Shown one piece after another: positions 1 to 10,334 of a stretch of 11,484 bases of DNA. The position numbers were made by a program, and so were the translations under genes. Positions within the stretch are counted from its first letter, which is position 1; each line of letters opens with the position of its first letter. The stretch is from the IMG/VR virus record IMGVR_UViG_2778261514_000009, one strand, 5' to 3'. The notes under the pieces were generated by a model. That model made no database searches, was not told the DNA's origin, and saw only the letters and a list, made by a program, of their open reading frames with translations. The stretch is from a virus (lineage: Duplodnaviria; Heunggongvirae; Uroviricota; Caudoviricetes).

Positions 1-1218
1 ATGAACAAACTGAGCGATACCTTGCTAAGGAAACTTCATGGTAAGCCAGCGGAGAAAAACACGTTTTATAGTGATGGCGGAAACCTGAGCGTGAAATATT
101 TAACATCAGGGAAATTGACCTGGTATTTCACATACAGGGCCGGAACGGGAAGGGAGACACGACCCGAACGCATTAAGCTGGGAAGTTATCCTGATCTGAG
201 CCTGAAAGCAGCCAGGGAAAAAGCCGCACAGTGTCGCACATGGCTGGCTGAGGGGAAAAATCCACGTCATGAGATGAATTACACCGTACAGGAAGCGTTA
301 AAGCCCGTAACGGTTGGCGATGCGCTCACCTACTGGCTTGAGTATTACGTAAAGGAAAACCGCGTGGATTATATCGCCCTGAAAAGGCGACTTAATAATC
401 ACGTAATACAGCAGATTGGTGCTATGCCGCTGGATAAATGCGAGCTACGGCACTGGCTGGCCTGTTTTGACCAGGTGGCAAAGCGAACGCCTGTTACTGC
501 CGGATTCGTGCTACAGGCGTGCAAACAGGCGCTTAAGTTCTGCCGTAGGCGGCGCTATGCAATCAGCAACGTTCTGGACGATCTGAACGTGGCGGACGTT
601 GGGAAAAAACCGGATATAAGCGAACGTGTCTTAAGTAACAAAGAACTTGGCGAATTATTGCAGGCACTGGACAAAAAAATATTCTCCCCTTACTACGTCG
701 CGTTAATCCGCCTCCTGATTGTCTTCGGAGCCAGAACGGTAGAACTGAGGTTATCGGAGATCGGGGAGTGGGATTTTACGGAAATGCTATGGACCGTTCC
801 GAAGGAGCACAGCAAAACGAAGGTCGCAATATTCCGGCCCATACCGGAAGCGATCCTGCCGTTCGTCACGCAGCTGGTGGAGCAGAACAGGCACACGGGC
901 TTATTGCTGGGGGAAGTGAAACAGGAGGCCAGCGTATCGCAGTATGGAAGATTAGCGCACAGGAGGCTTAATCATCCTCACTGGTCACTACATGACATCC
1001 GGCGCACCTTTACAACGATGCTGAACGATTTAGGCGTGGATCCTCACGTCGTGGAGCAGCTTACAGGCCACCAGATGCCAGGAATGCAGCGAGTTTATAA
1101 TCATTCCCGTTATCTGGATGCTAAACGCAATGCGCTGGATATGTGGACGGAGCGGTTAGGGATACTGGCGGGAACACATGAAAACGTAACCACGCTACCA
1201 GTAGCCAGAAGAAAATAA
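1..1218 (+). CDS. int: Tyrosine recombinase, P4-type phage integrase (405 aa; ORF begins at window position 1)
   Basis: N-terminal arm-binding-like region (YSDGGNLSVKY...WYFTYR) and C-terminal catalytic region (HDIRRTF...LTGHQ...VYNHSRYLD) typical of P4-family integrases; followed by an AlpA gene as in P4-like and PICI elements. Confidence 0.9.
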   Translation: MNKLSDTLLRKLHGKPAEKNTFYSDGGNLSVKYLTSGKLTWYFTYRAGTGRETRPERIKLGSYPDLSLKAAREKAAQCRTWLAEGKNPRHEMNYTVQEALKPVTVGDALTYWLEYYVKENRVDYIALKRRLNNHVIQQIGAMPLDKCELRHWLACFDQVAKRTPVTAGFVLQACKQALKFCRRRRYAISNVLDDLNVADVGKKPDISERVLSNKELGELLQALDKKIFSPYYVALIRLLIVFGARTVELRLSEIGEWDFTEMLWTVPKEHSKTKVAIFRPIPEAILPFVTQLVEQNRHTGLLLGEVKQEASVSQYGRLAHRRLNHPHWSLHDIRRTFTTMLNDLGVDPHVVEQLTGHQMPGMQRVYNHSRYLDAKRNALDMWTERLGILAGTHENVTTLPVARRK

Positions 1219-1582: not shown

Positions 1583-1771
1583 GTGTTAAGCACTGATCGG
1601 TTTATACGTGAAAAAGAATGCGAAAAACTAACCGGCCTTAGCCGTACGTGTCGCTACCGCCTGGAAAAGGCCGGACAATTCCCATCACGTCGTAAACTTG
1701 GCGGTCGTTCCGTTGGCTGGTCTTTATCCGAGGTTCTGGCCTGGAAGGATAGCTGCAAGGCAGTTCATTAA
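1583..1771 (+). CDS. alpA: AlpA-family transcriptional regulator / excisionase-like HTH protein (62 aa, GTG start)
   Basis: Pattern TGLSRTCRYRLEKAGQFP...LGGRSVGWSLSEVLAW matches the AlpA (Phage_AlpA) family; SD AAGGGGG lies 6 nt upstream of GTG at 1583. Confidence 0.85.
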   Translation: MLSTDRFIREKECEKLTGLSRTCRYRLEKAGQFPSRRKLGGRSVGWSLSEVLAWKDSCKAVH

Positions 1772-2753: not shown

Positions 2754-2954
2754 ATGGTTGCTGTAAATCATATACCACACCTTGTACACACACAAACGGC
2801 CTTTGTGTGGCGTTTTCTGGCACTGAGTGCCGGAGAATCTCAAATCATCCACGTAACCGCCTGGACGGAACGCGAAGCGCGTAGCCGTTGCCCGTCCGGT
2901 TGTGTTGCTGTATTCGCCGCCCGTATTCGTCAGGAGGTGTGCCATGTGCAATAA
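2754..2954 (+). CDS. Hypothetical small protein (66 aa), first gene of the replication-module operon; possibly Icd-like
   Basis: Internal ATG of track ORF 2679..2954 with SD AGGAG 6 nt upstream; the Icd-like resemblance is from memory only and unverified. Confidence 0.45.
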   Translation: MVAVNHIPHLVHTQTAFVWRFLALSAGESQIIHVTAWTEREARSRCPSGCVAVFAARIRQEVCHVQ

Positions 2955-3183
2955 AACCACACCGGACGCAGCCGCCGCCGCGCTCACTACGCTAATGCAT
3001 GCGCTGATTGATATTTCTGTTATTGCTGACAGGGCGCATAAGCACGCCACCAATGAAACAGAATATGCCGGGGCTTTCGTTCCTCATTCGCTGGCGGTTA
3101 TGCAACTTAGTGCTGATATGGCGCTGAATGAGGCTAAAGCCATCCTGATTGCTGATTGTGAAAATGGGGGTGGTTATGCGTGA
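2944..3183 (+). CDS. Hypothetical small protein (79 aa)
   Basis: ATG at 2944 with SD AGGAGG 7 nt upstream; start overlaps the previous stop (translational coupling). Confidence 0.45.
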   Translation: MCNKTTPDAAAAALTTLMHALIDISVIADRAHKHATNETEYAGAFVPHSLAVMQLSADMALNEAKAILIADCENGGGYA

Positions 3184-3640: not shown

Positions 3641-3940
3641 ATGAAACTTAAATATTCTGGCTTAACTGCCAGTGGCAACACTCACCCTAAATTTACGCGC
3701 GGTGATATTTACCGCGACCAGTACGGCGGCACGGTAATGATTAAGGGCGTGGAAGAACGGCGCGTAACCTACCGCCGTGAAGGCTACGAATATGACTGCG
3801 TGATGCCTGTTTATCAGTTCCGGCGTGATTTTTCTCTGGTACAGGCAGCGCCCCGCAGTAAACCAACCAGCAGGGAGAAAGCACGCGCCAATATTCAGGA
3901 AATAAAAAAGATACTTAACGTATTCAGGGGTAAAAAATGA
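3641..3940 (+). CDS. Hypothetical protein (99 aa) immediately upstream of and overlapping the primase gene
   Basis: ATG at 3641 with GGAG upstream; its stop overlaps the primase start (ATGA at 3937-3940). Confidence 0.5.
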   Translation: MKLKYSGLTASGNTHPKFTRGDIYRDQYGGTVMIKGVEERRVTYRREGYEYDCVMPVYQFRRDFSLVQAAPRSKPTSREKARANIQEIKKILNVFRGKK

Positions 3941-5691
3941 AACTGGCACCGAACGTAAAACAGCAGTCACGCGGCATAAAACACAAAGAAACAGAAGTCA
4001 TTATTTTTGCGGGTAGTGATGCCTGGTCACACGCGAAACAATGGCAGGAACATGATGCGCGTATGGCCGGAGATAATGAGCCTCCTGTGTGGCTTGGGGA
4101 GCAGCAGCTATCCGAACTGGATAATCTGCAAATTGTGCCGGAAGGCCGAAAATCAGCACGCATATACAGGGCCGGATATCTTGCGCCAGTAATGATAAAG
4201 GCGATTGGCCAGAAGCTGGCGGCGGCAGGCGTACAGGATGCAAATTTTTACCCTGATGGTATGCACGGTCAGAAGGTGGAGAACTGGCGCGAATATCTGG
4301 CCCGTGAGCGCCAGAATCTTTCTGATGGTCTGGTCATTGAGCTTCCGGTAAAGCAAAAGGCGCAACTTTCGCAGATGGCGGACAGTGAGCGCGCGCAGCT
4401 GCTTGCCGATCGCTTTGATGGCGTTTGCGTACATCCTGAAAGTGAAATCGTTCACGTATGGCGCGGCGGGGTATGGTGTCCGGTCAGCACAATGGAACTT
4501 AGCCGCGAAATGGTGGCGATCTATTCAGAGCACAGGGCCACTTTCAGCAAGCGCGTAATCAATAACGCCGTGGAAGCGTTAAAAGTTATTGCCGAACCAA
4601 TGGGCGAGCCGTCCGGCGATTTGCTGCCGTTCGCCAATGGTGCGCTTGACCTGAAAACGGGGGAATTTTCCCCGCACACGCCGGAGAACTGGATCACCAC
4701 GCACAACGGCATTGAGTACACGCCACCAGCACCAGGGGAGAACATCCGCGATAACGCGCCAAACTTTCATAAATGGCTTGAGCACGCAGCCGGAAAAGAC
4801 CCGCGCAAGATGATGCGTATATGTGCCGCGCTGTACATGATTATGGCGAACCGGTACGACTGGCAGATGTTTATTGAGGCCACCGGAGATGGCGGGAGCG
4901 GTAAAAGTACATTCACGCACATAGCCAGCCTTCTGGCAGGGAAACAGAACACGGTAAGCGCTGAAATGACGTCGCTTGATGATGCTGGTGGACGTGCGCA
5001 GGTTGTCGGGAGTCGTCTTATCGTCCTGGCTGACCAGCCGAAATATACAGGCGAAGGAACGGGCATCAAGAAAATCACGGGCGGTGACCCCGTGGAAATT
5101 AACCCGAAATACGAAAAGCGTTTCACGGCTGTAATCAGGGCGGTGGTGCTGGCGACCAACAATAACCCGATGATATTCACCGAACGGGCCGGAGGTGTGG
5201 CACGTCGTCGCGTGATTTTCCGTTTCGACAATATCGTCAGTGAGGCCGACAAAGACAGGGAGCTACCGGAAAAGATCGCGGCTGAAATCCCTGTCATTAT
5301 CCGCCGATTGCTGGCGAACTTTACCGACCCTGAGAAGGCACGGGCTTTACTACTGGAACAGCGTGACGGTGATGAAGCTCTGGCAATAAAGCAACAGACG
5401 GATCCGGTTATTGAGTTTTGCCAGTTCCTGAATTTTCTGGAGGAAGCACGCGGCCTGATGATGGGCGGCGGTGGCGATTCAGTGAAGTACACGACCAGAA
5501 ACAGCCTTTACCGCGTCTATCTGGCGTTTATGGCGTACGCAGGCAGGAGCAAACCGCTAAACGTAAATGACTTTGGCAAGGCTATGAAGCCAGCCGCGAA
5601 AGTTTACGGACATGAATATATTACGCGGAAAGTTAAGGGAGTAACGCAGACTAACGCAATAACAACAGACGAGTGCGACGCGTTTTTATAA
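3937..5691 (+). CDS. pri: Replication initiation primase/helicase (D5_N plus SF3-type P-loop NTPase; P4-family primase C-terminal region), 584 aa
   Basis: Walker A GDGGSGKST, the downstream hydrophobic strand with acidic residue (LIVLADQP) and the characteristic ...VEINPKYEKRFTAVIRAVVLATNNNP...RRRVIFRF block; followed directly by an iteron region, as in PICI pri-rep/ori modules. Confidence 0.88.
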   Translation: MKLAPNVKQQSRGIKHKETEVIIFAGSDAWSHAKQWQEHDARMAGDNEPPVWLGEQQLSELDNLQIVPEGRKSARIYRAGYLAPVMIKAIGQKLAAAGVQDANFYPDGMHGQKVENWREYLARERQNLSDGLVIELPVKQKAQLSQMADSERAQLLADRFDGVCVHPESEIVHVWRGGVWCPVSTMELSREMVAIYSEHRATFSKRVINNAVEALKVIAEPMGEPSGDLLPFANGALDLKTGEFSPHTPENWITTHNGIEYTPPAPGENIRDNAPNFHKWLEHAAGKDPRKMMRICAALYMIMANRYDWQMFIEATGDGGSGKSTFTHIASLLAGKQNTVSAEMTSLDDAGGRAQVVGSRLIVLADQPKYTGEGTGIKKITGGDPVEINPKYEKRFTAVIRAVVLATNNNPMIFTERAGGVARRRVIFRFDNIVSEADKDRELPEKIAAEIPVIIRRLLANFTDPEKARALLLEQRDGDEALAIKQQTDPVIEFCQFLNFLEEARGLMMGGGGDSVKYTTRNSLYRVYLAFMAYAGRSKPLNVNDFGKAMKPAAKVYGHEYITRKVKGVTQTNAITTDECDAFL

Positions 5692-5699
5692 TTTTTTGT

Positions 5700-5935
5700 A
5701 ATTGCTGTCTACCCTGTCTACCTGAGTAAAGAAAAATACATTTAATTCAGTGCATTAAGTTAGGTAGATAGCCTTTTTTTACTGTCTACCCACTATCTAC
5801 CCTCTCTACCTGATTTTACCTGAATCAGACAGGGAGGTAGACACGGGGTAGATAGTGGATAAAAGCACTCTACCCCGCTGAAAGCCGTGCCATTACTGGC
5901 ATGAGGGCCACTAAGGTAGATAAGGTAGACAAGGG
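5700..5935. repeat. Putative replication origin: about 11 iterons of GGTAGA(C/T)A in two inverted clusters around an AT-rich spacer
   Basis: Reverse-orientation copies (..GTCTACC..) at 5707, 5716, 5784, 5796, 5804, 5869; forward copies GGTAGATA/GGTAGACA at 5763, 5836, 5847, 5915, 5924; AT-rich stretch 5724-5760; sits immediately 3' of the primase gene. Confidence 0.6.
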
Positions 5936-5979
5936 GAGGCACAACTCAAAACTTTTTAAACGAGGGGGTAAAAATAAAT

Positions 5980-6258
5980 ATGCACACTTCAGGGAAATTT
6001 AATAAATCACTCAAAAAACGCAGAGACAGAACAGAACCGAAATATCGCGCGTTAGACATGACAGAGCACGCTTTAAAGGTGGCAATCAGAACGATAGACC
6101 GCCACGCGGGGGAAGGATACGCGAAAGCACATCCCGACCTGATAAGCGCATTCATGACCACGACGGCGGCAAATTTTGCCACGCTGACAGAGCGGGAGAT
6201 TGCCGAAGCGGAACAGGTAACAACAATCAACGTTAAAACCGGAGAGGTGGAATCATGA
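5980..6258 (+). CDS. Hypothetical protein (92 aa)
   Basis: ATG at 5980 with GAGGGGG upstream; stop overlaps the SSB start (ATGA at 6255); no family recognised. Confidence 0.45.
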   Translation: MHTSGKFNKSLKKRRDRTEPKYRALDMTEHALKVAIRTIDRHAGEGYAKAHPDLISAFMTTTAANFATLTEREIAEAEQVTTINVKTGEVES

Positions 6259-6665
6259 CAGCACAGATAGCCGCTTACGGGCGGCTGGTGGACGACCCGC
6301 AGGTAAAACAGACCAGCAAGGGCACACCGATGACGCTGGCGCGTATGGCGGTCCCCCTTCCGTGCAGCCAGGCAGATGACGGAACGGCGACGATGTGGTT
6401 ATCCGTCCTGGCATTTGGCAGACAGGCCGAAGCACTGGAAAGGCACCGCAAGGGTGAACTCCTGAGCGTGGCGGGTAACATGCAGATCAGCCAGTGGACT
6501 GGGCAGAACGGAGAAACGCGGCAGGGTTATCAGGTTATTGCAGACAGCGTAATCAGTGCCCGTGCGGCACGTCCTGGCGGGAACAGACGCAAAACCACAG
6601 GCACACAGGGTAATCAGCCACCAGCGGGAGGCGATGACCCTTACGGTGATGATATTCCGTTCTGA
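6255..6665 (+). CDS. ssb: Single-stranded DNA-binding protein (SSB homologue, 136 aa)
   Basis: OB-fold-like N-terminus, Gly/Pro/Gln-rich linker and C-terminal tail ...DDPYGDDIPF matching the conserved SSB acidic tip (E. coli SSB ends ...DFDDDIPF); SD GGAGAGGTGG. Confidence 0.85.
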   Translation: MTAQIAAYGRLVDDPQVKQTSKGTPMTLARMAVPLPCSQADDGTATMWLSVLAFGRQAEALERHRKGELLSVAGNMQISQWTGQNGETRQGYQVIADSVISARAARPGGNRRKTTGTQGNQPPAGGDDPYGDDIPF

Positions 6666-9791: not shown

Positions 9792-10334
9792 ATGAAATCG
9801 CACCTGATGAACAAAAAAAACATGGCGAAAAGCTGCCGTGTAAGTGCGACAGCGTTCGACAAGTGGGGAGTGACTCCCGTTGAACGTAAAGGCCGTGAGG
9901 CGTTTTACGATGTTGCCAGCGTGATAGACAATAGGGTTAACAATGCAATTAGCCAGCTTACAAACGACAAAGGCGATATTGATGATGATGAACTCTTACG
10001 AGTCAGGATCAGATTACTGACAGCACAGGCGGAGGCGCAGGAACTTAAAAACGAGCGCGATCGCGGTGACGTGATTGATACTGAGTTTTGCCTGTACGCG
10101 CTTTCAAAGCTGGCGAGTCAGATTTCATCAATCATGGACAGCCTCCCGCTTACTATGCAAAGGAGCTTCCCACAGATTACCCACGCCATGCTGGATAGGC
10201 TTAAAAGGGAAGTGGTTAAAGCCTGTAATGCCAGTGCCAGAGTTGCCGACAACCTCCCACAGATACTGGCTGATTACTTGAAAGAAACAACCGGAAACGT
10301 ACCGGAAAAGTTGCTACAGAAGAAAGGCGAGTAA
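9792..10334 (+). CDS. terS: Terminase small subunit, lambda Nu1 family (180 aa; start possibly at 9807)
   Basis: C-terminal two-thirds aligns with lambda Nu1 as recalled (RLLTAQAEAQELKNERD / LTRAQADAQELKNARD; FCLYALSKLASQISSIMDSLPL / FCTFVLSRIAGEIASILDGLPL; LKREVVKACN / LKRDIIKAMN); N-terminus NKKN... parallels Nu1 MEVNKKQ... HTH region; lies directly downstream of cos as in lambda. Confidence 0.8.
   Translation: MKSHLMNKKNMAKSCRVSATAFDKWGVTPVERKGREAFYDVASVIDNRVNNAISQLTNDKGDIDDDELLRVRIRLLTAQAEAQELKNERDRGDVIDTEFCLYALSKLASQISSIMDSLPLTMQRSFPQITHAMLDRLKREVVKACNASARVADNLPQILADYLKETTGNVPEKLLQKKGE

Follow-up and report, generated by a model that had tools for sequence, protein, structure and literature searches.

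What a cluster of short repeats does directly after the stop codon of a helicase-like gene is the question raised by an ~11-kb phage-inducible chromosomal island (PICI) of E. coli, which was analysed as a stretch of 11,484 bases (the window). All substantial ORFs lie on the + strand and, besides those listed in Table 1, encode PerC, a major capsid protein E and a lambda D-like decoration protein. E. coli STEC17-183 has a chromosomal segment that matches 3900-6300 at 100% identity, and in that chromosome the island as a whole lies within tqsA, which Table S1 of PMC6092414 gives as the att site of EcCI042 and EcCIK1516. Together with the size of the island, the presence of int and alpA and the unidirectional genes, this listed EcCI att site agrees with what is expected of a PICI. 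When 3900-6300 was used as a query, 559 of 5,426 complete E. coli genomes had a place covering at least 80% of it; the query includes the neighbouring DUF4222, orf92 and ssb sequences, and with it some E. coli genomes gave up to seven matching places. A phage database search with 5650-5980 gave no match.

The initial annotation described the cluster as about 11 copies of GGTAGAYA, a count that stands as nine exact and two degenerate copies. All nine exact matches in the window fall within 5706-5931, against a chance expectation of 0.31, and this number was reached in none of 200 shuffles. A one-mismatch scan added GGTAGAGA at 5803-5810 (-), and a hexamer scan added GGTAGAGT at 5867-5874 (-), both with the GGTAGA core kept; relatives have GGTAGACA or GGTAGATA in the column of the latter copy. 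Of the 12 GGTAGA hexamers in the window, the array contains 11 and the remaining one is at 738; exact and hexamer scans of the whole window found no second GGTAGA cluster in the island. The array was also said to lie directly 3' of the initiator gene, and indeed its first copy begins 14 nt past the TAA stop codon (5689-5691) of ORF 3937-5691.

From left to right the copies are oriented - - + - - - | + + - + +, which agrees with the earlier description of reverse copies mainly to the left and forward copies mainly to the right, and their start-to-start spacings are 9, 48, 20, 11, 9, 33, 11, 20, 48 and 9. Given these orientations and spacings, five pairs of iterons mirror each other to the base around a centre at 5818/5819, and the copy at 5803-5810 is the only one that has no mirror partner. 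When eleven oriented octamers were placed at random over the same span 20,000 times, five mirrored pairs arose in none of the placements and four arose in three. Long imperfect inverted repeats, I1 and I2, are centred on the same two bases. The iteron arms are mirror-symmetric but the intervening DNA is not: the left ~40-nt spacer has 22% G+C and its right mirror 58%. An AT-rich spacer had been placed between the two clusters; the spacer there (5811-5835) is only mildly AT-rich, with 40% G+C, and the strong AT tract sits instead in the left arm.

Table 1. Genes of the island and elements of the repeat region (window coordinates).
Feature	Coordinates	Strand	Remarks
Tyrosine integrase	1-1218	+	
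AlpA	1583-1771	+	
DUF4222 protein	3641-3940	+	
Initiator gene, 584 aa	3937-5691	+	N-terminal module of ~135 aa, P4-alpha-like SF3 helicase, C-terminal winged helix
Predicted origin-binding winged-helix domain, aa 488-579	5398-5673	+	phmmer match to PDB 1KA8
AT-rich tract	5682-5704		Spans initiator stop codon, left of first iteron pair; kept in E. coli relatives
Outer-left iteron pair	5706-5713, 5715-5722	-	GGTAGACA twice, exact; 9-nt spacing; exact mirror of 5915-5931
AT-rich spacer, left arm	5724-5762		22% G+C, low duplex stability; between outer pair and lone + copy
Lone opposed iteron, left arm	5763-5770	+	GGTAGATA, exact; mirror of 5867-5874
Inner-left cluster	5783-5790, 5794-5801, 5803-5810	-	Last copy with one mismatch; spacings of 11 and 9 nt
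Central spacer	5811-5835		Dyad centre 5818/5819; 40% G+C; inverted repeats I1, I2, I8
Inner-right pair	5836-5843, 5847-5854	+	Exact; 11-nt spacing; mirrors of 5794-5801 and 5783-5790
Lone opposed iteron, right arm	5867-5874	-	GGTAGAGT, core intact
GC-rich spacer, right arm	5875-5914		58% G+C; most stable duplex of the region
Outer-right pair	5915-5922, 5924-5931	+	Exact; 9-nt spacing; mirror of 5706-5722
Conserved block AAAACTTTTT...GAGGGGG	5948-5979	+	Beyond last iteron pair; includes RBS of ORF 5980-6258
92-aa ORF (orf92)	5980-6258	+	
SSB, likely replication-module accessory	6255-6665	+	Pfam SSB, E 1.2e-15
Nu1-family protein (Nu1-like small terminase)	9792-10334	+	

In an alignment with seven E. 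coli relatives, 82% of the GGTAGA core columns were invariant, compared with 28% of the other intergenic columns (Fisher p = 5e-14). Iteron positions 7-8 contained no invariant column and have drifted, being YA in the lineage of the window and RG in that of O157. As judged from these columns, the conserved iteron unit across the seven relatives is the GGTAGA hexamer.

Evidence that the region acts as an origin comes from the work of Fillol-Salom et al. (2018, ISME J), who studied the origins of EcCICFT073 and other Gram-negative PICIs (PMC6092414). EcCICFT073 (L090 in our set) was taken by the coordinates in Table S1 of that paper. Its gene order is the same as in the window, its initiator is identical at 577 of 584 residues (99%), and the DNA between the initiator gene and the following ORF is 97% identical, with 11 of 11 GGTAGA cores unchanged. 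There are about ten substitutions in this intergenic region, two of them at iteron position 7 and both within Y. The two islands differ in their site of integration, which is tqsA for the window island and ycfD-phoQ for EcCICFT073.

The authors used a thermosensitive plasmid carrying the pri-ori segment, which gave colonies at 44 °C, while the Δpri-ori and pri-Δori derivatives were impaired (PMC6092414). Loss of ori “significantly reduced” colony numbers but did not abolish them, and the Δori plasmid retained an intact initiator gene under an arabinose-inducible promoter (PMC6092414). When the published primers were mapped on EcCICFT073, the forward primer fell at L090 4449-4469, the Δori reverse primer at 6231-6251, 4 nt past the stop codon, and the pri-ori reverse primer, which differs by 1 nt (GG vs G), at about 6538-6558. 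The deleted “ori” is therefore L090 6252-6558, corresponding to window ~5696-6002, with the whole array inside. This ~300-bp deletion removed the iterons together with the conserved AAAACTTTT/RBS block. Since the published deletion covers a near-identical region, the replication test that the initial annotation had called for has in essence already been done.

The position and layout of the array point in the same direction. PICI origins sit directly 3' of the pri/rep gene (PMC6092414), as the window array does, and the outer pair at 5706-5722 and the inner copies at 5763-5810 flank the AT-rich 5724-5762, within the larger mirror dyad. The suggestion of a probable island ori is thus borne out by the 97% identity to a region of EcCICFT073 whose deletion impairs plasmid maintenance (PMC6092414). 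We conclude with high confidence that this EcCICFT073-type PICI uses 5696-~5980 as its vegetative replication origin. The origin of this island type is already known, having been described and tested in 2018, so current understanding is unchanged.

The plasmid data also bear on another reading, in which the cluster would be an auxiliary cis element like P4 crr, serving in copy control, handcuffing or as a replication enhancer, with initiation elsewhere in the island. The parallels are that P4 crr is a type-1 repeat set at the same position 3' of alpha, that the annotated rep_origin of P4 lies 4.5 kb away and that the window initiator is a P4 alpha homologue. However, the island has no second cluster to serve as such an origin, the sole other GGTAGA being that at 738. 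Moreover, the GGTAGA cluster 3' of the initiator gene is the only one in the EcCICFT073 pri-ori fragment (L090 4449-~6558), and this fragment sufficed for maintenance. We consider a purely auxiliary role very unlikely.

Homology to P4 alpha suggests which part of the initiator would read the repeats. The initiator has the Pfam domains D5_N, DUF5906 and Pox_D5 and matches the NCBIfam model primase_Cterm, P4 family. Its residues 141-579 align with residues 324-762 of P4 alpha at 40% identity over ~440 aa (E 3e-112), and its C-terminal ~90 residues (aa 488-579) match PDB 1KA8, the C-terminal domain of P4 alpha (phmmer, E 6.9e-7). In the earlier label “primase/helicase”, “primase” is a name by association: sequence searches found no primase catalytic domain in the initiator, there is a tentative TOPRIM-like fold only, and the N-terminal DnaG-type primase region of P4 alpha (residues 1-323) has no counterpart in the alignment.

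The N-terminal ~135 aa of the initiator gave no alignment to P4 alpha and no Pfam match. This module is common to DUF927-type (79% identity) and RepA-type (53%) initiators. Because initiators with unrelated iterons have it in common, it is not the specificity domain, and the proposal to use the N-terminal domain in an EMSA addressed the wrong end of the protein, the P4-type DNA-binding domain being C-terminal. ORF 1829-2728 (299 aa) was considered as a separate primase and rejected, as it has no similarity to P4 alpha and no match in Pfam, PHROGs, NCBIfam or PADLOC. This ORF occupies a variable slot between alpA and an icd-like gene, where EcCICFT073 has other genes, and it may be an accessory gene.

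Comparison across loci provides evidence on which part of the initiator the repeat word follows. A scan of one genome per species collected 80 loci encoding alpha-like proteins, in genera that include Shigella, Xenorhabdus, Photorhabdus, Proteus, Serratia, Yersinia, Raoultella, Pantoea, Rosenbergiella and Aeromonas. In the 400 nt after the initiator stop codon, GGTAGA was the commonest hexamer at 14 loci, with 6-13 copies; the commonest words at other loci were GGTATACA, GGTGTTCA, GGTGAACA, GGTGGACAGT, GGCGGACAGT, GGTAGGG or GGTCACTG. For 70 loci of other genera, identity in the C-terminal domain predicted whether a locus belongs to the GGTAGA class with an AUC of 0.99, compared with 0.74 for identity in the helicase domain. 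C-terminal domain identity to the window protein was 46-53% in the GGTAGA class and 24-48% in all other loci. Raoultella loci have a helicase only 45% identical, yet 11 GGTAGA copies, whereas L016-L018 have a helicase 62-63% identical, yet zero copies. The arm geometry of 9 / 46-48 / 20-21 / 11 was seen again in Xenorhabdus, Rosenbergiella, Symbiopectobacterium and Raoultella. The co-variation of word and domain may partly be linkage, since the iterons adjoin the C-terminal domain in the DNA.

Additional evidence came from sister islands with other initiators. Islands with DUF927 or AAA_25/RepA-type initiators have TGCGGGTTA or AAAGTGAGG repeats, respectively, at the same spot; they keep DUF4222 upstream and orf-ssb downstream, and the DUF927-type island L091 (from E. 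coli Xuzhou21) also keeps perC. An SSB gene adjoins the origin in islands of all three initiator types. This comparison indicates that the repeat word is tied to the helicase/C-terminal part of the initiator and not to the N-terminal module or the neighbouring genes. In L091, 6690-7010 is a dyad as well, with opposed outer TGCGGGTTA pairs 9 nt apart and inner clusters between them, so unrelated initiators share one origin layout. The GGTAGA motif, which had been proposed as the binding site of the initiator, very probably has that role as a putative site, given that the protein is a homologue of P4 alpha with its winged helix, that the word tracks this domain across genera and that it changes with initiator type.

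The same comparison weighs on the possibility that the repeats are an operator array for the orf92-ssb-perC-capsid genes, bound by the initiator or another regulator, with an indirect effect on replication. The cluster does have gene blocks of the same direction on both sides, with ORF 5980-6258 located 50 nt downstream, and is followed by the conserved AAAACTTTTT...GAGGGGG block; island transcription is unidirectional (PMC6092414), so a bound protein could act as a roadblock. However, the repeat word tracks the DNA-binding domain of the initiator while the downstream genes are constant, and the Δori plasmid was impaired despite its intact, arabinose-driven initiator gene (PMC6092414). Furthermore, a scan of 5500-6100 found no + strand sigma-70-like promoter or terminator; it gave one weak minus-strand promoter-like site and nothing above shuffles. 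The chance that the array is primarily an operator appears very slim. A packaging function, with the repeats recognised as a cos/pac site by the Nu1-like small terminase of the island, can be set aside as extremely improbable. In its favour, a Nu1-family protein is encoded on the island, and small terminase subunits recognise sites that are repeated. However, 3.9 kb separate its gene from the cluster, the word found in the repeats varies with initiator type and not with the packaging genes, and the cos sites of EcCICFT073 are a separate feature with their own figure and Δcos constructs (PMC6092414).

Several elements of the origin lie outside the iterons. Within the region, duplex stability is lowest for 30-mers that begin at 5682-5683 and 5717-5733, with a dG of about -32, and highest at 5870-5880; the tract 5682-5704 is among the least stable, with -31.7 compared with a window mean of -40.9 (sd 3.6). 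The spacer 5724-5762 is the predicted site of first melting. Most relatives have an AT-rich spacer at this position, but L021, L024 and L026 do not, which makes the site of melting uncertain. Within this spacer, the IHF-like word ATTCAGTGCATTA (5745-5757) has two mismatches to the IHF consensus WATCAANNNNTTR, and in seven relatives a 1-mismatch IHF-like word occupies this position, 5-6 nt ahead of the lone + iteron. Given that such 1-mismatch words arise 0.5 times per 300 shuffled bases, a putative IHF site is a weak lead only. The central spacer contains a short palindrome, CTGATT...AATCAG, at 5810-5815 / 5823-5828. A DnaA-box-like word, TTATCCACT at 5854-5862 (-), matches at 8 of 9 positions; it was rejected as a DnaA box, being present in the closest relatives, including EcCICFT073, but missing in L003, L004 and distant E. 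coli or O157-type relatives.

Two further blocks are conserved. The block CTGAAAGCCGTGCCATTACTGGCATGA (5878-5904) lies within the GC-rich spacer, its columns are kept in E. coli relatives, and akin words of the form AAAGCC...CCA-N-TGG are found in other genera. RNAalifold predicted no pairs for a conserved hairpin in 14 homologous right spacers; therefore, what is conserved there is sequence and not structure. This block stands at the mirror position of the AT-rich tract, and CATTACTG is also present in P4 ori, possibly by chance. The block 5948-5979 is invariant in the seven E. coli relatives. It lies beyond the end of the array as initially annotated (5935) but inside the published Δori deletion. 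Its word AAAACTTTTT lies 17 nt past the last iteron; several genera, and also loci of other iteron classes such as L058 and L072-L076, have AAAACTTT 12-20 nt beyond their last iteron. A permissive Rfam search for an RNA gene gave only sub-threshold matches to eukaryotic miRNA precursors, explained by the inverted repeat; within the reach of Rfam, an RNA gene can be excluded.

These features suggest a mechanism for the 5696-~5980 origin. After induction and excision, the initiator would bind the eleven RGGTAGA sites through its C-terminal winged helix (aa ~488-579), and we strongly infer that this domain contacts the RGGTAGA cores. The two mirror arms, each consisting of a pair, a ~40-nt spacer, an opposed copy and an inner cluster, would place two initiator assemblies head to head. 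The duplex would open first in the AT-rich left arm, 5724-5762, and perhaps also at 5682-5704. The helicase would then be loaded, the island SSB, encoded 560 nt downstream, would cover the single strands, and primers would be made by host primase or by the N-terminal module of the initiator itself. The head-to-head pair and the melting from the left arm are suggested by the mirror geometry taken together with general knowledge of SF3 initiators. The published work, on a 97%-identical sequence, shows that initiator and region together sustain a plasmid (PMC6092414); the binding domain, the bases read, head-to-head loading, the start of melting and the source of priming are inferred.

A broader scheme would extend to the whole family. 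Iterons across the P4-alpha family fit GGT-NNN-CA, and it is possible, though doubtful, that P4-alpha initiators read this word with its centre set by a few winged-helix residues, on a mirror-symmetric platform where two SF3 hexamers are loaded head to head and the AT-rich flank melts, the GC-rich block 5878-5904 having a second function. Neither the GGT-NNN-CA scheme nor the mirror-platform idea was found described in the searchable literature, which largely misses older P4 papers, and a full-text search for the P4 iteron word TGTTCACC returned unrelated primer sequences only. In the first 300 nt after the stop codon (2854-3150 in both), L016 and L017 have GGTATACA and GGTGTTCA, respectively, at equivalent positions. 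The C-terminal 125 aa of their initiators differ at 5 residues, two of them just before the conserved TN motif. This pair may be a natural switch of specificity.

The origin and its cognate initiator decide which islands replicate after induction by a helper phage, and which co-resident islands cross-activate or compete. A rule for annotation follows from the layout: directly 3' of a P4-alpha-like, DUF927 or RepA-type initiator gene, words of 8-10 bp should be sought in the arrangement pair / ~45-nt spacer / opposed copy / cluster. Some details may be new: the arms mirror each other to the base, the system can be linked to the winged helix of P4 alpha and to a family of GGT-NNN-CA words, there is evidence against the N-terminal module setting specificity, and two non-iteron blocks, 5878-5904 and 5948-5979, are conserved.

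Among known systems, the origins of SaPIs and other Gram-positive PICIs likewise follow the rep gene on its 3' side and have iterons that surround AT-rich DNA, and the Gram-positive Pri-Rep-ori segment drives autonomous replication (PMC6092414). They differ from the window origin in host phylum and iteron word. The window origin also has points in common with the origins of iteron plasmids and lambda, namely multiple initiator sites beside easily melted AT-rich DNA. In iteron plasmids (pSC101, R6K, RK2, P1) and lambda ori, the sites are direct repeats of 17-22 bp in one orientation, bound by a non-helicase Rep or O protein, and host DnaB is recruited; classical iteron-plasmid origins have DnaA boxes as well. 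The window sites are 6-8 bp long and occur in both orientations, and the initiator is itself homologous to SF3 helicases. SV40 large T and papillomavirus E1 combine an origin-binding domain with an SF3 helicase, and their core origins have inverted short words around a centre, with an AT-rich flank opposite a GC-richer one, a layout that supports a head-to-head double hexamer. The likeness to the window is one of layout, a functional analogy only: the origin sequences are unrelated, and the binding domain of the window initiator is a winged helix C-terminal to the helicase, unlike in large T and E1.

P4 has a homologous initiator, alpha being related to the window protein in both the helicase and the C-terminal winged helix. 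Its annotated record lists 8-bp type-1 repeats, GGTGAACA, in both orientations and often paired 9-11 nt apart, in both ori and crr. This word and the window's GGTAGACA have the same length and share 6 of 8 bases; the window word is GGTAGAYA, and GGTGAACA-class origins are found at other loci, e.g. L077-L089. P4 crr lies directly 3' of alpha, as the window array does relative to its initiator gene, but consists of two 120-bp direct repeats, whereas the window array is a mirror-image dyad. P4 needs two separate elements, ori and crr, while the window island has a single mirror-dyad cluster.
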